Shown here: positions 1-13,717 of the stretch, piece after piece
Layout of the letters: each line of letters opens with the position of its first letter
Position numbering within the stretch: position 1 is the stretch's first letter
Origin: Acinetobacter parvus DSM 16617 = CIP 108168
GTDB taxonomy: Bacteria; Pseudomonadota; Gammaproteobacteria; Pseudomonadales; Moraxellaceae
Assembly (NCBI RefSeq): GCF_000368025.1
Contig: NZ_KB849212.1
Location: 1 to 32,000, forward strand
Reading direction: 5' to 3'
DNA length: 32,000 nt
Made by a program: the position numbers and the translations under genes
Notes under the pieces: model-generated
Seen by the model: only the letters and a program-made list of their open reading frames with translations
Database searches by the model: none
What the model was told of the DNA's origin: nothing

Positions 1-29
1 ATTTAACATAATTTTAAGTTATGCGACAT
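1..29 (-). other. dif-like XerC/XerD site (left prophage junction)
   Basis: Reverse complement reads ATGTCGCATAA-CTTAAAA-TTATGTTAAAT. XerD arm matches 11/11 and XerC arm 10/11 versus the dif at 7826..7853. The spacer is 7 nt and unrelated to TGTATA. Orientation is the same as the right-hand dif. Confidence 0.6.
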
Positions 30-42
30 TCTGTACGCCTAC

Positions 43-95
43 GCGCTTTGCAATGGGGCGGAGCGAGGGCTCGCAGCTCGACCATTGCAAAGCGC
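43..95. repeat. GC-rich hairpin with a perfect 14-bp stem (candidate ssDNA structural element of the phage)
   Basis: GCGCTTTGCAATGG (43..56) pairs with CCATTGCAAAGCGC (82..95) around a 25-nt GC-rich loop. The surrounding DNA is AT-rich, and the hairpin lies next to the attachment site. Confidence 0.75.
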
Positions 96-107
96 AAATC
101 TTGCAAA

Positions 108-133
108 AAGTCCACGTTCTCTGGAGTGGACTT
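108..133 (-). terminator. Putative rho-independent terminator for the 158..580 gene
   Basis: 8-bp stem AAGTCCAC/GTGGACTT with a 10-nt loop. On the minus strand it is followed by a TTTTT-containing tail. It lies 25 nt downstream of the stop at 158. Confidence 0.5.
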
Positions 134-157
134 AAGTCTCATATTCGAGACATCTAT

Positions 158-580
158 TTATAATTTTAATGATATTTTATCTTCTTTAATGGATTGACTA
201 GATAGTAAAGCTTTATACAAAAATAATGGCAATCCATCTTCCATGTCTTTGCTTTTAATTGATTTTGTTCCATCTCTGTATTCAAATATCGCAATAGGGT
301 AGTTGTCTTGATCTGCTATGTAGAATCTTTTATCTTTTACGATAACTTTTTCGTTGGTGAATTCATGTTGTAGCATTCTCATAAACTTACTTTCATTGGG
401 TGATAGTAAGTTGAGTTGCCTTATTCGATCTGCATCTGTTTCATAGCGGATTTTTGCTTTTTGCCTTTCTGTATAATTTATTATTTTTCTTTTTTTGGCT
501 TCTGGCATTTCTTTCTTTTTATTGATACCAATGAAATAGCCAATGGCTATTCCAATGATTAAAAATATGATTTGGCTCAT
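158..580 (-). CDS. Membrane-anchored small protein with a DUF2726-like (restriction-endonuclease-fold-like) C-terminal region; prophage accessory gene
   Basis: ATG start preceded by AAGGAAG. N-terminal TM helix IIFLIIGIAIGYFIGI followed by a basic stretch. LLSPNESKFMRMLQ...FYIADQDNYPIAIFEYRDG...DGLPLFLY resembles the DUF2726 pattern as I recall it (LTxxExxFyxxL...DFvlcD...pvlaIELDD...GlPllr). Confidence 0.6.
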   Translation of the reverse strand: MSQIIFLIIGIAIGYFIGINKKKEMPEAKKRKIINYTERQKAKIRYETDADRIRQLNLLSPNESKFMRMLQHEFTNEKVIVKDKRFYIADQDNYPIAIFEYRDGTKSIKSKDMEDGLPLFLYKALLSSQSIKEDKISLKL

Positions 581-614
581 CTTCTTCCTTAATAGTCAGG
601 ATCAATATTTATTA

Positions 615-821
615 TTAGTCGGCTTTTTTTATTTCTTCGATATATTTTGTTACATCTTTTGCAGTTATTTCTTTTAAGTGTTTATAAATTAAAGCATTTA
701 TTACATCAGCTTCCTCAATTCTTTCCTTTTTTTCGATAATAAAGTCTAGTGATTTTTCTTTTATTGCTTCCACAAATTCCCCTCTAATTCTATAAGTTTT
801 TGATAAGTCTGATTTTTTCAT
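615..821 (-). CDS. Small phage repressor candidate (ribbon-helix-helix-like), divergent from the replication operon
   Basis: The ATG at 821 has an AGGAA RBS 5-6 nt upstream; the track start at 836 is TTG. The 68-aa product begins KKSDLSKTYRIRGEFVEAIKEK (beta-strand then helix, as in RHH folds). Its position and orientation match rstR of CTXphi. Confidence 0.55.
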   Translation of the reverse strand: MKKSDLSKTYRIRGEFVEAIKEKSLDFIIEKKERIEEADVINALIYKHLKEITAKDVTKYIEEIKKAD

Positions 822-952
822 GTGATTTCCTAACAATGTTTAATGCAACAGCATTATTGTGTCACACGTTGCTTTGTTACGTGCAATTCTGTTATCTTTC
901 TGTCAATTTGTTGCGTGTGATGTTGTTGCATGTAAATATTTGATATTTCAAG
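822..952. promoter_or_regulatory. Divergent promoter/operator region between the repressor and the replication operon
   Basis: 131-bp AT-rich intergenic region with repeated TGTTGC/GCAACA motifs. TGCAACA (844..850) is inverted at TGTTGCA (924..930). TCACACG (about 863..869) is inverted at CGTGTGA (about 914..920). TGTTGC is directly repeated at 909..914 and 924..929. Confidence 0.45.
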
Positions 953-1141
953 ATGGGGCATAACATGAATAAAGAACAAGCTTTAGCTCGGATTGAAAGT
1001 TATTTTGTGGCGCATGGTATTTCTACAATGCCAGATTACTACAAGGGGATTATTGCAGGCTTTCTATCTGCCTGTTCTCTTACTGATGTATTCAGTGATG
1101 ATGAATTGGTTGCTTTGCAAGATCGTCTTGATAGTCTCTAA
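953..1141 (+). CDS. Hypothetical small phage protein upstream of Rep
   Basis: 62-aa ORF (alternative ATG at 965). Its stop lies 2 nt before the Rep ATG at 1144, which suggests translational coupling. No recognisable motifs. Confidence 0.5.
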   Translation: MGHNMNKEQALARIESYFVAHGISTMPDYYKGIIAGFLSACSLTDVFSDDELVALQDRLDSL

Positions 1142-1143
1142 TC

Positions 1144-2622
1144 ATGCTAGACAAAATTGTAATGTGGATACCTGTCAAGACTGATCTTGTTGAATTAACA
1201 AGCGACGGTAGACACTGCATTATTTGTTTTGACCTGCTTGACCTGAATCTTAAAGTTGGCTCTTACGATGTATACAAGGATGAAGATGGGAATGTAAAAA
1301 CTCAAATCCTGCATCATGTCTGGTCAAAAATCCCCACCTCTCATACTGCCATGTCATTCAAGCTGTTCCATGATGTTCCTGGGCATCCGTATGTGGAACT
1401 GAAATGTTCACCTGCCAAGATCATGCAAGGGCATAACGTATACGGCACTGACTGGATAGAAGAGGGTGCTTTGGAAATGTTGGGCTTCTTGGCTCAATCA
1501 AACCCTGCGCTTTATGACATCCTCGATGTCGGCATGACTGAGGTTAAGCAACTCGACGCAACCTACTCATTCCGTTTTCGTGATGACCGAGAAGCTGAAA
1601 AGGTTCTGGCCTTGATGCGGAATGTCTCAACACAGCACATCCGCAAATCCACCAAAGATGCCATGTTCAAGAATACGCTGTATTTCGGTTCTGAACGTTG
1701 CAAGCGTTTTGCCCGTAAAGTGTATGTGAAGTCCAATGAGTTCCACGAACAATTACAGGAACAAATCAAGCTTGCCAAGGCAAATGACAAATGTGCCCAG
1801 CGTGTCGTTAAGGTCATGTCCGATCCTGAACTACAGGCCTTTGCACGTGGTCTATTAAGATTTGAAACAGGCATCAAAGCCTACGTTATGAAAGAACTCG
1901 ATATCCCAACTAATTTATTCCAGCTTATCCGTTACCAAAAATCCAATCCCAATTTTTTACAAGACATCTGGCTTAAAGCAAATCGTCAATTATTCCAAGC
2001 ATTTGAGGGTACAAACATGAAAGTATCTGACCATGAAACTGTATTTAAAAATATTCTTGCCGTTCACCAAACCGTATCCACTGAAAAGAAAATCTGTACA
2101 AGAAAGGTCGATGAACTCATGGAGTTTTACCTCCTACTGGAGAGCATTGGCCACAATGAAACCAAAAAGAAATATACCCACAAGCGTTTCCTCAACCTTG
2201 CAGCGGACCTGATTGATGCGGGCTTTAGTGGCACATACCTCCAGCGCCTACATGAGAAGCCGTCACAGAACTTTTCCCGTTTTGACGTCTATATCCAGAT
2301 ATTCAAGGCTTTCAGGAAAGAAATCCCTGCGGGCACGGTGTCAGACCGTAAGGCTCGGAATATCGAGCGTTTCTACTATGACATTGAAAAATTTGGCTTT
2401 GATGAAATGCGAACTAAATATAGCAAAGCTCAATTCTGTAAATTGGTAGCAGCTTTAGAAAAGTGTGGTTATTCAAAAGTTTATATCCAAAACCTACATG
2501 TCCAGTCAAGCAACAACGTTATCCCATTTATCAAAATGTTCGAAATGAAATTTGAAGATCAGCTACCGCCAAACTTTATCGAACCCGTTTCAACGTTCAG
2601 TTATCAACTACGTACCGCATAA
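1144..2622 (+). CDS. Filamentous-phage rolling-circle replication initiator (gene II/X, Phage_CRI/RstA-like family)
   Basis: 492 aa. The N-terminus MLDKIVMWIPV and the motif ELKCSPAKIMQGHNVYG match my recollection of the gene II/X family signature (sPaKxxqGHNvfG). Position immediately upstream of the ssDNA-binding protein and coat genes. Confidence 0.8.
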   Translation: MLDKIVMWIPVKTDLVELTSDGRHCIICFDLLDLNLKVGSYDVYKDEDGNVKTQILHHVWSKIPTSHTAMSFKLFHDVPGHPYVELKCSPAKIMQGHNVYGTDWIEEGALEMLGFLAQSNPALYDILDVGMTEVKQLDATYSFRFRDDREAEKVLALMRNVSTQHIRKSTKDAMFKNTLYFGSERCKRFARKVYVKSNEFHEQLQEQIKLAKANDKCAQRVVKVMSDPELQAFARGLLRFETGIKAYVMKELDIPTNLFQLIRYQKSNPNFLQDIWLKANRQLFQAFEGTNMKVSDHETVFKNILAVHQTVSTEKKICTRKVDELMEFYLLLESIGHNETKKKYTHKRFLNLAADLIDAGFSGTYLQRLHEKPSQNFSRFDVYIQIFKAFRKEIPAGTVSDRKARNIERFYYDIEKFGFDEMRTKYSKAQFCKLVAALEKCGYSKVYIQNLHVQSSNNVIPFIKMFEMKFEDQLPPNFIEPVSTFSYQLRTA

Positions 2623-2632
2623 GGTGAATACC

Positions 2633-2950
2633 ATGTCTCAATTAATCTTTAAAGCAAAACTACTCGATATCCTAACCTCAGTGGGTGACAAGGGCGAACT
2701 CAAGATGCGTCTTGTTTTCAAGTCCCAAAAATATGATAAGGGTTTGGATGAAATTGTCCCTTGTTCTCAAAATGTCTCTGTTATTTCAGATCATCATCAT
2801 ATGAAAGACTTTTACATGTCATTCAAAGGTCGTGAAATCTATCTGCCAGTTGAGTTATCAACCCAAATGAATGGCATGAACATATTTTATAAAACCACTG
2901 GAGATGGCAAGCCTCTCCAGTTGGAAGAAAAAGCGGTTAAAGCTGCATAA
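2633..2950 (+). CDS. ssDNA-binding protein (gene V / RstB analogue)
   Basis: In-frame ATG at 2633 with an AAGGTG RBS 6 nt upstream. About 105 aa with beta-rich composition. Canonical position between Rep and the coat genes. The longer track ORF (2552) overlaps Rep and is less likely. Confidence 0.65.
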   Translation: MSQLIFKAKLLDILTSVGDKGELKMRLVFKSQKYDKGLDEIVPCSQNVSVISDHHHMKDFYMSFKGREIYLPVELSTQMNGMNIFYKTTGDGKPLQLEEKAVKAA

Positions 2951-2962
2951 GGAATCTAAGAA

Positions 2963-3139
2963 ATGGCACTGGTTTGCAATCAACTCGACTCGACAACTAA
3001 CCAGTGCCTTGAATGGGTAGAAATGCCCACTGTGCTGCCGAAGCTCACACTAGTAGAGGGTAATACCATTGGTTTTGCTTGTCTAATGGTGTTTGCAACG
3101 GTCTTTGTAATCAAGAAGTGCATCAAAGCACTACATTAA
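2963..3139 (+). CDS. Small hydrophobic protein, candidate minor coat protein (pVII/pIX-like); absent from the ORF track (58 aa)
   Basis: My translation is MALVCNQLDSTTNQCLEWVEMPTVLPKLTLVEGNTIGFACLMVFATVFVIKKCIKALH. It has a C-terminal TM segment followed by basic residues. AAGGA lies upstream. The ORF fills the gap between the ssDNA-binding protein and major coat genes. Confidence 0.5.
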   Translation: MALVCNQLDSTTNQCLEWVEMPTVLPKLTLVEGNTIGFACLMVFATVFVIKKCIKALH

Positions 3140-3151
3140 AAGGAGTCCATC

Positions 3152-3421
3152 ATGGACAAATTAACCCAAGATCAAGTAAATGAAGCAATGAACAAAACCT
3201 ATGGCAACCCTGCTGCTTTTGCTGCTGCTGTGAAGAAATATGGCTTTGGTATTGCTGTATCTGCTGCGCTTATGAGCAACGCTAATGCTGCACCAATTGA
3301 CGTTACATCAGTGGTTGGAACCATCACAGATGGCGTGACAACTGTAAGCTCTATTGGGCTTGCTGTGCTGTCTTTAGTTGTAGTTATCAAAGTGTTCAAG
3401 TGGGCACGATCAGCAATGTAA
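3152..3421 (+). CDS. Major coat protein (pVIII/Cep-like)
   Basis: AGGAG RBS 6 nt upstream. Signal-peptide-like ...AVSAALMSNANA then APIDVTS. Acidic N-terminus, hydrophobic IGLAVLSLVVVI and basic C-terminus KVFKWARSAM, which is the classic inovirus coat layout. Followed by a strong terminator. Confidence 0.85.
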   Translation: MDKLTQDQVNEAMNKTYGNPAAFAAAVKKYGFGIAVSAALMSNANAAPIDVTSVVGTITDGVTTVSSIGLAVLSLVVVIKVFKWARSAM

Positions 3422-3426
3422 TAACG

Positions 3427-3455
3427 ATGCCCTCGTTTGAGGGCATTTCTTTTTA
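3427..3455 (+). terminator. Rho-independent terminator after the major coat gene
   Basis: ATGCCCTC-GTTT-GAGGGCAT followed by TTCTTTTT. Attenuation after gene VIII is typical of inoviruses. Confidence 0.85.
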
Positions 3456-3496
3456 ACTGGGTGAAATATGGACATAGAAAGTTTAGGGGCATATAT

Positions 3497-4774
3497 ATGC
3501 ATAATCATGTGGCTAATCGTGGGCGCAAGGCTCTTTTAAAACAAATCTTCTCTGTATTTCTTATATTTACGCTTTACTTCAATTGTTTTAATTCTGCTTA
3601 TGCTGCTGGTGGTTTTGCTCCTTGGTCTATTACAAATACAGTTGTTCAAGGTGCTTCTACAGTGCTGACAGGTACGAAAGAAGTCATTTTGAATGGTGCA
3701 AAAAAAATAGCTACTGGTACAGCAAAGATTACACCTACGGCTGCTCAGGTCTCGAAAGTACTAGCGCGTGGCGCTGCTGGTTATGCTTTATCAGTAGCAG
3801 TGCAACAATTGCTTGGCGCTGTTGATTGGGTTCTTGATCCTGCGAATAATCGAATTACTTACGTTGATCCTAACGTAAAAAGTCCTGCTGATAAATATTG
3901 TCAAGAACAAGCTGCAATTAAGTACGGTGCTGGTAGTGAATGGGCGAAAAAAGCTGTTTATGCTAAAGTTGGTCTTTATGCTGGTTATTGTATTTTATCT
4001 GATAATCCAAATTTTCCTTTATTCCCAGCTGGGACTCAAAATACTACTATTCCTGAAGAAGATAGAAAATCAATTCCTTTAGATACTGTTGCTCAACAGG
4101 TTATTTCTAATGCTGAAAATGGAGATACTAACGCACAAGTAGCAACAACTGCTGCTGCTGCTGACATTATCAATGATGCTCAAACAGACAATACAAAAGC
4201 CCGTCCTATTATCAATCAACTTGAAAATACGCAATCTATTCCTACAGATCAGACAGCAAAAGGTGATGCTGTACCTAAAGAAAATGCGAATACTGAAAAT
4301 CCCAGCTCGTCGGTAGCTGCCCCTGCAACAGATTTAACTTTAGATTTTCCGATTTTCTGTGACTGGGCGCCAAGTATTTGTCAAGCTGCTAAATGGGTCA
4401 TTACACAGCCACAAGTATGGGCTGATGCTGTTACAGATTCTTGGGACTGGACTAAAACAAAATATGAAGCTGCTGTGACATCAATTACAGACTTCTTTAA
4501 AAATGAACCTAATCCTGATTCTGATAATAGTCTGCCAGTCCAAGACATACCTTTGCCAGAACTAAATACGGGCACATTTAAAGCAACTGCAGGCTGTCCT
4601 GCACCTATTCCCATAAATATCACAATTGGCACAAAAGGTACTGGATCAATTAGTTATGAACCTATTTGTCAGTTTGCTTCGAAATGGTCTTTTGTTGCTC
4701 CGCTAATAGGCTTTCTATCAGGTGCAATGATTCTTGTTGGGGTTGGCCGTAAAGGTGAGGATTCAGAGATATGA
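3497..4774 (+). CDS. Minor coat / receptor-binding adsorption protein (pIII/OrfU-like)
   Basis: The ATG at 3497 gives an N-terminal signal peptide (FSVFLIFTLYFNCFNSAYA then AGG). About 425 aa, Ala/Thr-rich with low-complexity linkers. C-terminal membrane anchor FVAPLIGFLSGAMILVGVG. Position after the major coat gene. Confidence 0.7.
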   Translation: MHNHVANRGRKALLKQIFSVFLIFTLYFNCFNSAYAAGGFAPWSITNTVVQGASTVLTGTKEVILNGAKKIATGTAKITPTAAQVSKVLARGAAGYALSVAVQQLLGAVDWVLDPANNRITYVDPNVKSPADKYCQEQAAIKYGAGSEWAKKAVYAKVGLYAGYCILSDNPNFPLFPAGTQNTTIPEEDRKSIPLDTVAQQVISNAENGDTNAQVATTAAAADIINDAQTDNTKARPIINQLENTQSIPTDQTAKGDAVPKENANTENPSSSVAAPATDLTLDFPIFCDWAPSICQAAKWVITQPQVWADAVTDSWDWTKTKYEAAVTSITDFFKNEPNPDSDNSLPVQDIPLPELNTGTFKATAGCPAPIPINITIGTKGTGSISYEPICQFASKWSFVAPLIGFLSGAMILVGVGRKGEDSEI

Positions 4775-5061
4775 GCTTGAAATCAATACTTGTATCTGTC
4801 GCAGATGCAACATTATCAAAAACAGGAAAATCACTTTTAAAGGGTTTGGGTTTAGGGGTGTTTTCTAGTGCTGTTGTACTCACTTTGTTTAATCAATTGA
4901 TTTCTTACGCTCAAACTGAGTGGGGCAAAATGTCTGCTGACGTATTGCAGATACTTGCCCTGGGCAATATTGACTACGGGCTGTCAATCATTGTTGGGGC
5001 ATGTGTTCTCAAGGTTACATTGATGATTAACAAGGTCTCTTTAGGAAAGGCATCAAGCTAA
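4771..5061 (+). CDS. Minor coat protein (pVI/Ace-like)
   Basis: ATGA overlap with the upstream stop. 96 aa with two or three hydrophobic helices. TAATG overlap with the zot start. Confidence 0.7.
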   Translation: MSLKSILVSVADATLSKTGKSLLKGLGLGVFSSAVVLTLFNQLISYAQTEWGKMSADVLQILALGNIDYGLSIIVGACVLKVTLMINKVSLGKASS

Positions 5062-6269
5062 TGGCTATTTATTTAATTGTTGGGCAGCCACGACACGGAA
5101 AAAGCCAATTTGCTGCTAAAATGGCTTATGAATATCACGAAAAAAACATTGAGATTCAAAAACGTATAGATTCTGGAAAGTTTAATCCTGAAACGGACAT
5201 TGTGCGACAAATTTACTCAGATATTGAGGGTCATGCAGAAAAGTGTGACTTTATAAAACTTGCACCAAAAGATTGGCGTGATGTTCCTGATAATTCCATT
5301 ATTTTTATGGATGAAATACATAAAAGGCCTGAATATACTGATAATGATGGCAAAATGTCTCAAAATCCCATGATTGTTGATTTAACAACGCATGGGCATC
5401 AAAATAAAGACATTATCTTGATGACTCAAGACCCACAAAGACTAAACAAGGGTATTAGAGCATTAGTTGAAAAAATGTACTTGGTTAAACGACCAGTTCA
5501 AAAACCTAATTTTGCTACTATCTATGAATTTGAAAGATGGCTTCGTGATCCGTGGCAAGCTGCTGCATCAACACGTACTGTTAATTATCAGGACAGCTAT
5601 AAATTCTTCTATAAGAAAAAATGGCAAGACATGTACACCAGTGCATCTGCTCATACTTCAGTACAGTTCAAAATACAAAGTAAGTTCATTTACGCAATCA
5701 TTGCCATTGTGGTTTTAATGTCTGCGTCATGGTTTCTGTTTACAAAGTCGGGCGGTGACAAGCTCGCACGTAATGCCATAGGTGGCATGACAGGGCAAAA
5801 ACCTACTGAAGAAAATAAAAGTCAATCGACTCAGAGTACGCAATCTGTCCCCAGTGGTACCCAGAATTTAGATACAGAATGCAGAAAAGGCGCAAATGTT
5901 GAAAAACCTGAATGTGTAAAATGGTTTGATCAGATTACCAAAAATGGTTCTTCGGTTTCCCCTGGGGAGAATGGCCATACAACTGTTGCATATAATCCAG
6001 CTCAACCGTTTGATAATGACATACAAAACCATGTTTCTTATGAAGTTACGGCAAAACCATTATTTAGTGGTTGTATGAAAACAGGTAGTAAATATCAAGC
6101 ATATACACAACAAGGGACAAAACTTGATGTATCACAAGCCGACTGTCAGCGTCTCATTGAGAACAACGACAGACCTTTTAATTACTTTGTCAATAATCGG
6201 ACTGATATGTCGAGTACAGAGATGCAGCGAAGCGAAGTTTCTACACAGACAAACCAGCCGACCCTTTAA
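5061..6269 (+). CDS. Zot/pI-family phage assembly ATPase
   Basis: Walker A GQPRHGKS at the N-terminus, Walker B IIFMDEIH, central TM helix FIYAIIAIVVLMSASWFLF, periplasmic C-terminal domain. Canonical gene order. Confidence 0.85.
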   Translation: MAIYLIVGQPRHGKSQFAAKMAYEYHEKNIEIQKRIDSGKFNPETDIVRQIYSDIEGHAEKCDFIKLAPKDWRDVPDNSIIFMDEIHKRPEYTDNDGKMSQNPMIVDLTTHGHQNKDIILMTQDPQRLNKGIRALVEKMYLVKRPVQKPNFATIYEFERWLRDPWQAAASTRTVNYQDSYKFFYKKKWQDMYTSASAHTSVQFKIQSKFIYAIIAIVVLMSASWFLFTKSGGDKLARNAIGGMTGQKPTEENKSQSTQSTQSVPSGTQNLDTECRKGANVEKPECVKWFDQITKNGSSVSPGENGHTTVAYNPAQPFDNDIQNHVSYEVTAKPLFSGCMKTGSKYQAYTQQGTKLDVSQADCQRLIENNDRPFNYFVNNRTDMSSTEMQRSEVSTQTNQPTL

Positions 6270-6295
6270 GATTTCCCGCAACGATGTACAACCCG

Positions 6296-6316
6296 GGGCG
6301 ATCAACGCCCTTTTTT
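6296..6316 (+). terminator. Rho-independent terminator after zot
   Basis: GGGCG-ATCAA-CGCCC followed by TTTTTT. Confidence 0.6.
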
Positions 6317-6610
6317 ATTGCCATTGCAAAAATAGGGCAGAGATCATTAATTCAAAAACACGATAAAAAATAAATAATGATAGAAATAAAATGTTTGACA
6401 ATCTTATTACGACAAATAATGACGTTACAAGATCAAATATTCATCATAAGCAAAACATGTGCCAATAGTGTTTTGTCAATATATATTGTGTATTTTAAGA
6501 TGAAAGGTTATTTCACGCCTTGCCACAATTCATCAAAATCATGCTCTATGCCTCGTTGCGTATGATCTTGGCATGGCGTTATTGGTTCTTGCTGCGAGAA
6601 TTATATTTAT

Positions 6611-6632
6611 GGCTATTCGGAATAAGGTGTGG
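6611..6632. repeat. Left terminal inverted repeat of the cassette
   Basis: GGCTATTCGGAATAAGGTGTGG. Its reverse complement, CCACACCTTATTCCGAATAGCC, matches 7349..7370 except at one base. Confidence 0.85.
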
Positions 6633-6675
6633 AAACTGCCATTTGTTGGTAATTCAAAATAATTCCAATTAACTC

Positions 6676-6704
6676 TTGTTTTGTGAGCGGTCACACTTTA
6701 TAAT
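6676..6704 (+). promoter_or_regulatory. Sigma70-type promoter with an operator palindrome in the spacer
   Basis: -35 TTGTTT (6676..6681), a 17-nt spacer and a consensus -10 TATAAT (6699..6704). The spacer contains TGTGA-GCGG-TCACA (6683..6696). The promoter lies about 25 nt upstream of the GGAG RBS of the 6730 gene. Confidence 0.65.
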
Positions 6705-6729
6705 TAACACATAGACAAGGAGATTGATA

Positions 6730-7152
6730 ATGAAATTATTCCACACAAGCCCAAACAAAATTGAGAAAGTTTCTAAGTTTGGTAACTTTGATGATTGCTT
6801 ATTCTTCTCTACAAATGTTTATGAAATGTCAGCAGGTGAAACTATCACTTACTCAATTAATGCTGATGATATGCGCTTTATCGATGCTTCTGATTTGCAT
6901 GATAGTGAAGTCATAGCGGAAATTGCTGAACGATTTGAGATTGATTTAGATGATGCAGAAAGCTTATTAGATGGCTCAGATAGTGTTTGGAATCATGACT
7001 TTGCTGATGCTGAAAACGATTGGTTCATTCAAGCTAAACGTGGTGAATGTGCTAAAAGAATGGGCTTTGATGGTTGTAAAGATCATGATGAGCAAGGTGT
7101 GGTTTACATCATCCCAATGCTCAATCGTGAATCAATCTTAGTTGAGGAGTAA
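6730..7152 (+). CDS. AcrIF11-family-like small acidic protein (candidate ADP-ribosyltransferase anti-CRISPR)
   Basis: The ATG at 6730 has a CAAGGAG RBS 7 nt upstream. 140 aa. MKLFHTSPNKIEKV...GNFDDCLFFS...Y.M.AGETITYSI...WFIQAKRGECAKRMGFDGC.DHDEQGVVYIIPML matches my memory of AcrIF11 (MEIFHTSP...DEQG...). An H...Y...E arrangement typical of ART folds is present. This rests on recollection and was not searched. Confidence 0.6.
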   Translation: MKLFHTSPNKIEKVSKFGNFDDCLFFSTNVYEMSAGETITYSINADDMRFIDASDLHDSEVIAEIAERFEIDLDDAESLLDGSDSVWNHDFADAENDWFIQAKRGECAKRMGFDGCKDHDEQGVVYIIPMLNRESILVEE

Positions 7153-7157
7153 TTAAA

Positions 7158-7340
7158 ATGGCTCAGACAGCAGCAGAGCGCAAAGCTAAACAACGTCAAG
7201 AAATGTTAGACAAAGGCTTTGTTCGCAAAGACCTTTGGTTATCAAAAGAAAGTCTTGATTTGATCGAAAAATATAAAACAGAAAATAACTTAAAGTCGAA
7301 CGATGATGCGCTTAATCAATTATTAAAGGCTCTAAATTAA
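7158..7340 (+). CDS. Small RepB/RHH-like DNA-binding protein, candidate anti-CRISPR-associated (Aca) regulator
   Basis: GAGGAG RBS 8 nt upstream. 60 aa. AERKAKQRQEMLDKGFVRKDLWLSKESLDLIEK resembles the RepB-type regulatory pattern (AERqxryRxxxxxxGxxxxxvWvxxe). Located 5 nt downstream of the acr-like gene. Confidence 0.55.
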   Translation: MAQTAAERKAKQRQEMLDKGFVRKDLWLSKESLDLIEKYKTENNLKSNDDALNQLLKALN

Positions 7341-7348
7341 GAGCCTTT
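7325..7348 (+). terminator. Hairpin at the end of the cassette operon
   Basis: AAAGGCTC/GAGCCTTT 8-bp stem whose loop contains the stop codon at 7338..7340. It abuts the right IR. There is no clear T-tract, so terminator function is uncertain. Confidence 0.4.
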
Positions 7349-7370
7349 CCACACGTTATTCCGAATAGCC
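7349..7370. repeat. Right terminal inverted repeat of the cassette
   Basis: CCACACGTTATTCCGAATAGCC, followed directly by ATATTTAT. Confidence 0.85.
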
Positions 7371-7446
7371 ATATTTATGTGCTTAAATTTGACCATCCTT
7401 GCCCTGATTACAAAATCCTCCCTCATGTTCTATGAGGGATTAACCA

Positions 7447-7518
7447 TAAAAGCCTTTCAGGGGAATTGTCGTGCCCGAGCAGTGCGCAGGGTCGACAAGG
7501 CGTAGTCTAAGGCTTTTA
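7447..7518. repeat. Nested GC-rich hairpin (candidate ssDNA structural element)
   Basis: TAAAAGCCTT (7447..7456) pairs with AAGGCTTTTA (7509..7518). An inner stem pairs TTGTCG (7466..7471) with CGACAA (7493..7498). The interior is markedly more GC-rich than the flanks. Confidence 0.6.
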
Positions 7519-7530
7519 ATATGGTGGTCT

Positions 7531-7710
7531 ATGAACACGGATAAACTAATCACAATGCTTGACTCGTATCTCGAGTTGCTCCAGGAGCAAAATGCACCTG
7601 ACGAACAGATCACAGAGGTTAAGTTGATGGTATGGGCAATACAGCAGGATATGAAACTGCAACGGTTCATTAATAACCTGACGGTCAGCAACTCATATTA
7701 TAGGCGTTAG
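7531..7710 (+). CDS. Hypothetical small helical phage protein
   Basis: The internal ATG at 7531 gives 59 aa, MNTDKLITMLDSYLELLQEQNAPDEQITEVKLMVWAIQQDMKLQRF..., with protein-like composition. The opposing ORF 7440..7691 is Cys/Ser-rich and looks non-coding. The RBS is weak. Confidence 0.4.
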   Translation: MNTDKLITMLDSYLELLQEQNAPDEQITEVKLMVWAIQQDMKLQRFINNLTVSNSYYRR

Positions 7711-7712
7711 GA

Positions 7713-7740
7713 TTTCCGCATAACTTAGATTATGTTCATT
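7713..7740 (+). other. Inverted, degenerate dif-like site (attP-type partner site)
   Basis: TTTCCGCATAA-CTTAGA-TTATGTTCATT. XerC arm 9/11, XerD arm 9/11 and centre 3/6 versus dif. Orientation is opposite to the dif 85 bp away. Confidence 0.5.
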
Positions 7741-7825
7741 CGGATAGCGTTGACAGTCAAGCTGTCAATGCTCACCATTGCGATTGTAAGAGCGAGAGCG
7801 TTGCTGTAGTGGTGACTTGTATCTG

Positions 7826-7853
7826 ATTTAACATAATATACATTATGCGAAAT
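7826..7853 (-). other. dif: Chromosomal dif site (XerC/XerD, terminus resolution site)
   Basis: Reverse complement ATTTCGCATAA-TGTATA-TTATGTTAAAT is identical to E. coli dif GGTGCGCATAATGTATATTATGTTAAAT except for the first four bases. Confidence 0.85.
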
Positions 7854-8162
7854 ACAAACTAAATATTTTTCCATCTTAATTTTTAGGATAATTTGCATGA
7901 TGCTCTGGATCATTTAGGTATCCCTGTAAAAGATCAGACTTTTTCGCTTCAATAACTTCAGCCCTTAGTTTGTAGAAATCTCTCTATAAAATAATGCTTT
8001 GAAAAGATGTTTGCTCATTCGTGAGCTGGCGCTGCAAGGTCCTTTCTGATGTATGTGGTTTTTACGCTACCTGTTTTGATGAATTGCAACATTTAAAATG
8101 TCTTGTTCTAGAAAACTTTGATGAAAAAATGCAACTATTAAATTGATCAAAATATAAAAACC

Positions 8163-8196
8163 AGACAGCTATTTAGTATTAACTAAATAGCTGTCT
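8163..8196 (-). terminator. Rho-independent terminator of the TenA/PqqC-like gene
   Basis: Perfect 15-bp stem AGACAGCTATTTAGT/ACTAAATAGCTGTCT with a 4-nt loop. Followed on the minus strand by GGTTTTTATATTTT. Confidence 0.85.
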
Positions 8197-8204
8197 TATG
8201 GATT

Positions 8205-12882: not shown

Positions 12883-13005
12883 AACGGCTTATTCTATCGT
12901 GTTTTTCAACTATTTTTTAATGTTTCATCATTAATCCACTGAAAACAAAAAATAGATCAATTGGATTGATTAAATACTATTCAATATTTTGATTTAATGC
13001 TTTAA

Positions 13006-13024
13006 TGTACACACTATGTGTACA
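13006..13024. promoter_or_regulatory. Palindromic candidate VapB operator
   Basis: TGTACAC-ACTAT-GTGTACA, located 14 nt upstream of the vapB start region. Confidence 0.45.
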
Positions 13025-13037
13025 TACATTGGAGGCT

Positions 13038-13307
13038 ATGATGAGCACATCAATTACATCTCGTGTATTTATGAATGGCAATAGTCAAGCCGTTCGTATT
13101 CCACAAGAATTTCGTTTAAATACCAAGCGGGTAGAAATTTTTTTGAATCAGAATGGAGATTTGGTCATTCATCCTATTGCAGATTTAAATGAAAATCGAG
13201 GTGAAGCATTATGGCAAGCCTTAAATGAATTTGATGATGACTTTGTTGAGGCTCTAGAAAAAAATCGTTTAGAGGATAACCAAGTACAAGAGCGTGATGC
13301 TTTATGA
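13038..13307 (+). CDS. vapB: VapB-type antitoxin (AbrB/SpoVT fold)
   Basis: GGAGG RBS. VFMNGNSQAVRIPQEF is the typical AbrB-like swapped-hairpin motif. The stop overlaps the vapC start (ATGA). Confidence 0.9.
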   Translation: MMSTSITSRVFMNGNSQAVRIPQEFRLNTKRVEIFLNQNGDLVIHPIADLNENRGEALWQALNEFDDDFVEALEKNRLEDNQVQERDAL

Positions 13308-13717
13308 AATATATGCTGGATACCAATATTCTGATCTATTTCATGAAGAATAAACCCCTGAGTGTGATTGAACGAGTCAATCAACTCTCACAGGATGATG
13401 AATTGTGTATGTCATTTATCAGTTATGCGGAATTATTAAAAGGAGCCTACGGCAGTCAGCGAAAGACTGTTGTTTTAAAACAGCTTGAAAACCTGATTCT
13501 GCGAATCCCTGTCCTTTATAGTACTCAACAACAACTTTGTGAGTACTATGCTCATCATGCACTATTACTCAAACAAGCTGGAACACCGATTGGTAATAAT
13601 GATTTATGGATTGCAAGTCATGCACTTGCCGAAAAATGTATTTTGGTGAGCAACAATTGTAAGGAATTTAATCGCATTACAGATTTAACACTGGAAAACT
13701 GGGCTGATCCAACATGA
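13304..13717 (+). CDS. vapC: VapC-type PIN-domain ribonuclease toxin
   Basis: MLDTNILIY (first acidic residue of the PIN domain), ...AELL..., NNDLWIA. 137 aa. Confidence 0.92.
   Translation: MKYMLDTNILIYFMKNKPLSVIERVNQLSQDDELCMSFISYAELLKGAYGSQRKTVVLKQLENLILRIPVLYSTQQQLCEYYAHHALLLKQAGTPIGNNDLWIASHALAEKCILVSNNCKEFNRITDLTLENWADPT

Follow-up and report, generated by a model that had tools for sequence, protein, structure and literature searches.

An AcrIF11-family operon in a putative ISL3-derived cassette of a dif-integrated filamentous prophage of Acinetobacter parvus

The first 32,000 nucleotides of contig NZ_KB849212.1 of Acinetobacter parvus DSM 16617 = CIP 108168, here called the window, begin with a filamentous prophage (inovirus) at the chromosomal dif site. 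Downstream of its zot gene the prophage carries acrIF11, an anti-CRISPR (Acr) gene of the AcrIF11 family, followed by the gene of a small protein that resembles ribbon-helix-helix (RHH) regulators. Both genes lie in a 760-bp unit bounded by terminal inverted repeats (TIRs) and 8-bp duplications of the target site. The most fitting description of the unit is a mobile insertion cassette (MIC), a passenger-carrying, non-autonomous offshoot of an insertion sequence (IS) of the ISL3 family: its repeats recur elsewhere, likewise with 8-bp duplications, and also enclose an ISL3 transposase. The AcrIF11 protein itself belongs to a known family; the vehicle, an ISL3-derived cassette in a dif-integrating filamentous phage, is the more interesting finding.

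The acrIF11 gene and its partner

The open reading frame (ORF) at 6730-7152 is preceded by an AAGGAG ribosome-binding site at 6717-6722 and encodes 140 residues that begin with MKLFHTSPNKIEK and end with KRMGFDGCKDHDEQGVVYIIPMLNRESILVEE. The product is acidic with a pI of 4.26 and 32 Asp and Glu versus 12 Lys and Arg residues. The initial annotation, made from the sequence alone, had given this acidic 140-aa protein as MKLFHTSP...DHDEQGVVYIIPMLNRESILVEE; ORF, start and charge were right, while the quoted C-terminus stopped two residues short of the end.

The NCBIfam equivalog NF052490 ('AcrIF11 family anti-CRISPR ADP-ribosyltransferase') matched the protein over the whole profile with 150.7 bits at a cutoff of 50 (E = 5e-44). 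The precomputed Pfam label is PF26151 (AcrIF11_ADP_ribosyl); a local scan with Pfam profiles gave no match, PF26151 being present only in the precomputed annotations. In a phmmer search of the PDB, residues 1-138 aligned to 8dwq_A (AcrIF11Pae2, deposited as 'H3 protein') with E = 2.2e-18. The alignment includes the MEIFHTSP/MKLFHTSP, G.F..L.F, Y.M.AG and DEQG..Y.I.ML blocks, which the initial annotation had named for AcrIF11. The second match was 6kyf (AcrIF11Pae1) with E = 0.002. The identity was 33% to AcrIF11Pae2 and 23% to AcrIF11Pae1. A wider homolog search yielded 151 clusters, the closest of them from Acinetobacter and nearly all with the precomputed label PF26151.

An AlphaFold2 (AF2) model built on 37 homologs had a pLDDT of 92.7 and a pTM of 0.87. 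Foldseek placed 8dwq (E = 4e-7, TM 0.62) and 6kyf (E = 1e-5, TM 0.58) on ranks 1 and 2 of the PDB, both with a probability of 1.00. Matches after this pair were much weaker; MbcT, a toxin with the ADP-ribosyltransferase (ART) fold, ranked fourth. According to the alignment with 8dwq, residues H20, Y46, D146 and E147 of AcrIF11Pae2 correspond to H5, Y31, D120 and E121. The initial annotation had singled out three of these, namely H5, the tyrosine of an FFSTNVY stretch (Y31) and E121. The 37 homologs all share H5 and Y31, and conservation of D120 and E121 among them is at least 90%. Loss of Csy1 ADP-ribosylation and of phage protection was shown for two double mutants of AcrIF11Pae2, H20A/Y46A and D146A/E147A (Chen et al., PMC12421852). 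Thus the ORF is real and its product a clear member of the AcrIF11 family, since curated profile, PDB sequence matches, fold and conserved residues all point the same way. The affiliation with AcrIF11 and the ART fold proposed in the initial annotation is thereby borne out. From these similarities the product is predicted to be an active ADP-ribosyltransferase.

The partner gene starts after a gap of 5 nt and encodes a basic 60-aa protein (pI 9.05). Matches to it were found only in Acinetobacter, and its UniRef label is RHH/CopG; a sequence search of the PDB gave no match. The AF2 model (pLDDT 87.9) consists of an N-terminal helix, an extended segment (residues 19-29) and two further helices. 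In all five tailed-prophage contexts recovered for the homolog P0202 the 60-aa gene follows an AcrIF11 homolog. A distant homolog on contig L024 follows a different gene of 168 aa.

Upstream of acrIF11 lies a candidate sigma-70 promoter, which is kept as TTGAAT-17-TATAAT in diverged operons; a consensus promoter scan missed the copy in the window because its -35 element is weak. The spacer contains a candidate operator palindrome. Next to the 51%-identical regulator of L024 the candidate operator is the perfect palindrome TGTGACATGTCACA. Read from the sequence, promoter, candidate operator, acr and the small RHH-like gene have the architecture of an operon of acr with anti-CRISPR-associated (aca) genes. 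From operon context, candidate operator and model, the 60-aa protein is a candidate repressor of the acr promoter.

Relatives of the 60-aa gene also occur on plasmids. In 82 A. baumannii plasmids (e.g. L076, NZ_CP027531.1 31879-32921) an 89-aa homolog with 78% nucleotide identity follows two hypothetical genes of 105 and 118 aa, both devoid of family matches; Tn7-like tnsA/tnsB and a tyrosine recombinase are its neighbours. With a regulator of this type, the locus may likewise serve anti-defence. The acr element was not found on plasmids, only the homolog of the 60-aa gene.

The prophage at dif

The position of the acr gene within a phage was established by comparison with the A. parvus chromosome GCA_042656365.1. 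This genome contains a 7825-bp unit twice in tandem, with 100% identity between the two copies and likewise between them and window positions 1-7825. It encodes the identical Acr protein, and the whole module including acr and the 60-aa gene is duplicated there. The start of the window coincides with the left dif-like junction; in the complete genome the upstream neighbour is either a phage copy or the cobS flank, and both occur. The reverse complement of the right junction site is identical in 25 of 28 positions to the dif sequence of E. coli. Among the window ORFs there was no integrase ORF in the prophage unit. The same phage was recovered on contigs from independent samples.

CTXphi, which has no integrase either, uses the chromosomal dif site, is often present in tandem copies and carries its cargo ctxAB downstream of zot by the attachment region. 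The acr gene is genuine inovirus cargo, located downstream of zot inside a tandem, dif-integrated unit of 7825 bp. The initial annotation had anticipated this in assigning the gene to the slot where CTXphi carries its toxin genes. Features of the window and of related elements on other contigs are collected in Table 1.

Table 1. Features of the prophage and the cassette in the window, and elements with the same terminal repeats on other contigs (L numbers)
Feature	Position	Strand	Basis or remark
Putative non-autonomous ISL3-derived cassette with acrIF11 and RHH gene, 760 bp	6611..7370	+	97.6-99.7% identical copies elsewhere
Target-site duplication, left copy, 8 bp, ATATTTAT	6603..6610	.	8/8 identical to 7371-7378
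Left terminal inverted repeat, 25 bp, GGCTATTCGGAATAAGGTGTGGAAA	6611..6635	+	border comparison
Candidate sigma-70 promoter: -35 TTGTTT (6676-6681), 17-nt spacer, -10 TATAAT (6699-6704)	6676..6704	+	read from sequence
Candidate operator palindrome TGTGAGCGGTCACA, within promoter spacer	6682..6695	.	half-sites invariant in 83%-identical operons
acrIF11-family ADP-ribosyltransferase gene	6730..7152	+	ATG start, 140 aa; key residues H5, Y31, D120, E121
60-aa basic protein, RHH-like, candidate Aca repressor	7158..7340	+	operon context, model
Right terminal inverted repeat	7346..7370	-	border comparison; 24/25 identical to left
Target-site duplication, right copy, ATATTTAT	7371..7378	.	8/8 identical to left
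Inovirus prophage and two junction sites	1..7853	+	repeating unit 7825 bp = window 1-7825
dif-like site, phage-type, left junction (attL), ATTTAACATAATTTTAAGTTATGCGACAT; also copy-to-copy junction in tandem array	1..29	.	junction comparison
Rolling-circle replication initiator (G2P/Phage_CRI), 492 aa	1144..2622	+	Pfam PF05144 5e-44, PF05155 5e-13 (Phage_CRI/G2P_X_C)
Major coat protein, 89 aa	3152..3421	+	Pfam Phage_Coat_B 5e-17
425-aa protein, minor coat/adsorption (pIII-like) role from position only	3497..4774	+	phrog_7568 (function unknown) 7.5e-156
DUF2523 small membrane protein, pVI-like position	4771..5061	+	Pfam PF10734 1.6e-14
Zot/pI morphogenesis ATPase, 402 aa	5061..6269	+	Pfam PF05707 7e-13
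Chromosomal dif site, right junction (attR), 28 bp, ATTTAACATAA-TATACA-TTATGCGAAAT	7826..7853	.	junction comparison
760-bp element with acrIF11 and 60-aa gene	L013		97.6% identical; duplication AAAAAAAT 8/8
895-bp element with AcrIF10-family gene and Aca2/YdiL-family gene	L014:1042-1936		NF033953, 169 bits (cutoff 28); PF08965; duplication TATTAATC 8/8
1917-bp element with complete ISL3 transposase and Dam-type N6-adenine methyltransferase passenger	L015:5627-7543		duplication AAAAAAAT 8/8
790-bp element with 132-aa gene and C-terminal stump of transposase	L016:986-1775		phrog_1245 (function unknown); duplication 7/8
1388-bp element with 64-aa and 168-aa genes, then 51%-identical homolog of 60-aa gene	L024:1900-3287		perfect duplication ATAATCGT
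1797-bp canonical IS, no passenger, Acinetobacter sp. P8-3-8 chromosome	L023:1-1797		transposase 89% identical to that of L015

Megablast of window positions 1-8200 against the phage records of GenBank returned no match. The closest deposited inovirus is Acinetobacter phage M02, with a Zot identity of 33%. Related inovirus loci were retrieved via Zot (36-93% identity), and the TIR and the acr gene were absent from 28 out of 28. The closest full-length relatives (86% identity) continue from zot, after no more than about 20 bp, with a homolog of window 7405-7853. Related inoviruses are without the whole region 6270-7404 and not without the cassette alone.

AcrIF11 was found neither on these 28 Zot relatives nor on another inovirus among four inovirus-sized contigs with AcrIF11 homologs; the four were rejected as inoviruses on account of tailed-phage, integrase-adjacent or type IV CRISPR contexts. 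One of them, the 7-kb contig L078, encodes an AcrIF11 homolog of 58% identity at 181-648, a few genes from type IV genes (Csf1, Csf3, CRISPR_assoc) at 2429-5070. It may be a plasmid that combines a type IV system with a type I-F inhibitor.

Two leftward ORFs at the prophage's left, dif-proximal end, 158-580 (-) with 140 aa and 615-836 (-) with about 68-73 aa, diverge from the rep operon. They match phrog_23897 and phrog_5219, both of unknown function. By position, they could be a repressor or regulatory module of the phage like rstR of CTXphi. Outside the prophage, at window 13005-13717 (+), there is a chromosomal toxin-antitoxin pair, in which an AbrB/MazE-like antitoxin gene (100 aa) overlaps the gene of a PIN-domain toxin (137 aa).

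The cassette and elements with the same repeats

The initial annotation had overlooked that the acr gene is part of a transposable two-gene unit that tailed phages carry as well. A scan of the window for the TIR gave two matches, where none was expected by chance. Within 6611-7370 the only non-overlapping ORFs are the 140-aa and the 60-aa genes, and there is no transposase. The cassette was also found at other sites with different flanks, namely on L003/L006, L007, L008 and L013. Contigs L003 and L006, which encode the same protein, carry NinB, terminase and P22-type portal genes, and L007 and L008 represent other non-inovirus contexts. The DNA common to the window and to L003/L006, L007 and L008 is limited to about 770 bp of 99.6-99.7% identity, which ends abruptly on both sides. 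In at least five different genomic contexts the borders of the element are exactly the TIRs.

Perfect 8-bp direct repeats flank the elements of the window, L007, L013, L014, L015 and L024; those of L003/L006 and L016 agree in 7 of 8 positions. On L007 the duplication is TATAATTT on both sides, on L003/L006 it reads GAAGTTTA and GAAATTTA, and its sequence differs at each distinct site. Direct repeats immediately outside the terminal repeats are the signature of transposition, by which the unit presumably arrived. The predicted pre-insertion sequence in the prophage is GAGAATTATATTTATGTGCTTAAATT. A repeat search returned an inverted repeat of 33 nt, which extends into the flanks only for the reason that ATATTTAT is itself nearly palindromic; at other insertions the flanks are direct repeats.

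Scanning IMG/VR for the TIR yielded the elements of L013 to L016 (Table 1). The autonomous elements L015 and L023 are bounded by the same TIR of 22-25 nt, with GGCTATTCGGAATAA... ends. The transposase of L015 matched NF033550 with 298.8 bits (cutoff 180) and Pfam DDE_Tnp_ISL3 with 2e-59; the Dam-type passenger is located on the left-end side of the transposase gene. The first 36 nt of the window cassette are 89% identical to the right inverted repeat (IRR) end of this autonomous IS. An 8-bp duplication and repeats initiated by GG are typical of the ISL3 family. Judged by its profile matches, the L014 element represents another anti-CRISPR operon within such a cassette. No copy of the autonomous IS was recovered from plasmids. 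Scanned for the TIR, species-representative genomes and metagenomes gave few matches, which were mostly single-ended.

Mini-elements of 54-60 bp, which comprise little beyond two inward-facing copies of the TIR family, were seen at L012:~882-935, L017:8080-8133 and L015:724-783, and also in L020, L059, L061, L062, L068 and L069. They may be minimal miniature inverted-repeat transposable elements (MITEs) of the ISL3 IS, two of which could bracket and capture a gene.

Operons of acr and the RHH gene were also recovered from tailed Acinetobacter prophages (L026-L030), where they are located between the integrase and lysis/tail genes, e.g. at L026:2509-3190. At the position of the left repeat the sequence of these loci resembles a decayed version of the repeat. 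The cassette may have captured its operon from such an ordinary accessory locus.

Interpretation and comparison with known systems

Taken together, we consider it probable, at about three in four, that an AcrIF11-family operon in an ISL3-derived cassette was inserted into a dif-integrated filamentous prophage and acts against type I-F CRISPR-Cas. The prophage of 7.8 kb would presumably have been placed at dif by the host recombinases XerC and XerD as for CTXphi, and would have received the 760-bp insertion between zot and its dif-proximal end. A cognate ISL3 transposase would act in trans to move the cassette, which would be packaged into virions with the phage. The cassette would constitute a self-contained expression unit of promoter with embedded operator, ribosome-binding site, acrIF11, 60-aa RHH gene and terminal hairpin. 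The Acr would take NAD+ as substrate and modify Cas8f (Csy1), a subunit of the type I-F surveillance complex, by ADP-ribosylation; in P. aeruginosa the modified residue is Asn250. This would block binding of target DNA, and sub-stoichiometric amounts of enzyme would be enough. Thus interference and self-targeting would be averted for the integrated prophage and for the double-stranded replicative form, and co-resident elements would be protected as well. A dimer of the 60-aa protein would bind the operator and shut acr transcription after an initial burst, which is the role of an Aca. The setting fits such a target: many A. parvus have CRISPR-Cas of type I-Fb (PMC4224351, PMC4338279).

Several observations weigh against this interpretation. 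An exact empty site was found neither by an exact-match scan of IMG/VR nor by BLAST and local alignment against the 28 related inoviruses; in the closest cassette-free inoviruses the gap extends beyond the insertion, by about 340 bp on its left and about 27 bp on its right, and the missing left part explains why the data contain no such site. An autonomous ISL3 copy was not found in the window by the TIR scan. The operons in the tailed prophages mentioned above are 83% identical and have no TIRs, so the operon is also an ordinary accessory locus and moves by other routes too. Only some Acinetobacter homologs of AcrIF11 were active in an assay with A. baylyi ADP1 (bioRxiv 10.1101/2024.01.05.574328). 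As to the 60-aa protein, all top Foldseek matches are RHH proteins (NikR, MazE, CopG, Arc, VapB, ParD), yet their E-values of at least 1.7 are not significant, and scans with Pfam and NCBIfam gave no family match.

The target of the enzyme might be a different one. We regard it as unlikely that the Acr, as an active ADP-ribosyltransferase of the AcrIF11 fold, modifies something else instead of Cas8f, e.g. a different defence protein or a host factor of benefit to chronic infection. Such a switch would be in line with the identity of only 33% and 23% to the Pseudomonas proteins AcrIF11Pae2 and AcrIF11Pae1, with the homologs that failed to inhibit the ADP1 system, and with the homolog beside type IV CRISPR genes; moreover, the family varies most in the helical region to which a part in target recognition is ascribed (PMC12421852). 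On the other hand, the score is three times the curated equivalog cutoff, AcrIF11 is highly specific for Csy1 in cells (PMC12421852), and two Acinetobacter homologs, AcrIF11.3 and AcrIF11.5, inhibit the type I-F system of A. baylyi ADP1 (Shu et al., bioRxiv 10.1101/2024.01.05.574328). In addition, type I-F is the dominant CRISPR type in Acinetobacter, and a sister cassette with the same TIRs carries the type I-F inhibitor AcrIF10. Slightly less likely still is a defective, domesticated prophage remnant whose cassette serves the host or other resident elements, e.g. by tolerance of self-targeting or by plasmid uptake. An integrated copy that expresses the Acr would indeed disarm the CRISPR system of the cell for all incoming elements, but the inovirus gene set is intact, the complete identity of the two tandem copies suggests recent activity and the occurrence on contigs from independent samples speaks against a remnant. 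Tandem arrays are how prophages of the CTXphi type generate their replicative form.

The mobility of the cassette could be questioned by viewing the acr-RHH pair as an ordinary phage 'moron' that is exchanged by recombination, with inverted repeats that serve regulation or recombination, e.g. as Xer/pdif-like sites. Acinetobacter pdif modules are bounded by 28-bp inverted Xer sites, and a stretch of the repeat, ...ATTCGGAATAAGGTGTG..., is loosely similar to a XerC arm with spacer. The TIR-less copies and the missing empty site would also agree with a moron. However, perfect 8-bp duplications that vary in sequence from site to site are a signature of transposition and not of site-specific recombination. 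The repeats are unlike the genuine dif and dif-like sites at the ends of the prophage. The same repeats surround the gene of a complete ISL3 transposase; in a deletion derivative only the C-terminus of the transposase is left. For these reasons the Xer/pdif-module reading of the inverted repeats of about 28 bp was rejected, and exchange as a moron appears very improbable. Thus we favor a transposable cassette of ISL3 origin.

Roux et al. (2019), in the one systematic search of inoviruses for Acrs, tested ten hypothetical proteins of self-targeted inoviruses and found no Acr (PMC6813254), which agrees with the opinion of the initial annotation that an acr gene would be unusual on a filamentous phage. 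They suggested a dependence of inoviruses on Acrs from co-resident double-stranded DNA (dsDNA) phages (PMC6813254). A full-text literature search of incomplete coverage brought up neither an Acr on an inovirus nor a naturally transposable acr cassette in earlier work. The locus might be the first case of an inovirus with a functional Acr of its own, acquired by an undescribed route in which self-regulated acr operons (acrIF11-RHH, acrIF10-aca2) and other anti-defence genes (Dam) are passengers of ISL3-family IS or their derivatives and transpose between unrelated Acinetobacter phages as independently mobile 'hitch-hikers'. We advance this wider claim tentatively, at a little below even odds.

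An inovirus with its own catalytic Acr would mean that inoviruses, which are pervasive chronic phages, can be self-sufficient. Chronic expression of an enzyme that disables type I-F would open the host to plasmids and other phages. The consequence is notable for Acinetobacter, whose main CRISPR type is I-F and is believed to keep conjugative elements in check. The cassette would further provide a concrete mechanism for the patchy, 'guilt-by-association' spread of acr loci, in that an operon with its own transposon ends can enter AT-rich sites of any phage where the cell supplies an ISL3 transposase. Finally, the TIRs serve as a search handle: the unknown genes they enclose (132 aa on L016; 64 aa and 168 aa on L024) are candidates for anti-defence functions.

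With AcrIF11Pae2 (8DWQ) and AcrIF11Pae1 (6KYF) the protein shares the curated family (NF052490/PF26151), the size class and a fold of a beta-sheet NAD-binding core with a variable helical insert; with AcrIF11Pae2 it also shares the essential H/Y and D-E residues. The order of acr followed by a small DNA-binding gene is the same as for both. It differs from them by a shorter helical insert and by Acinetobacter as host; its partner is RHH-like instead of an Aca with a helix-turn-helix (HTH), and the gene resides on an inovirus inside a transposable cassette. Judged by their description, AcrIF11.3 and AcrIF11.5 are likewise Acinetobacter homologs with a conserved downstream partner gene. Their partner 'aca10' is described as HTH, however, and the paper mentions neither a transposable cassette nor an inovirus context.

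An RHH Aca has a precedent in Aca14, which was demonstrated experimentally in September 2026 (PMC13551039). By description, Aca14 is a small RHH-type protein encoded last in acr operons, in which the RHH adjoins a helical extension and the promoter contains an inverted repeat; the 60-aa protein, with its RHH-like model and the candidate operator, would be similar. The operator of Aca14 is AT-rich and overlaps the -10 element, whereas the candidate operator of the cassette is a GC-containing palindrome in the spacer. The 60-aa family appears restricted to Acinetobacter.

The prophage resembles CTXphi as an integrase-less filamentous phage at dif with tandem copies and accessory cargo downstream of zot. 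Its cargo differs: an anti-defence operon takes the place of a toxin, and it came within a cassette of IS origin that brings promoter and regulator along. The cassette, in turn, has its counterparts in MICs and ISL3 'transporter IS', where IS-type TIRs and a target-site duplication surround passenger genes. MICs such as MIC231 of Bacillus cereus have no transposase and are moved in trans by the parent IS. Here, in contrast to these known elements, the passengers are anti-CRISPR and anti-restriction genes, and the targets are phage genomes, one of which would be packaged as single-stranded DNA.

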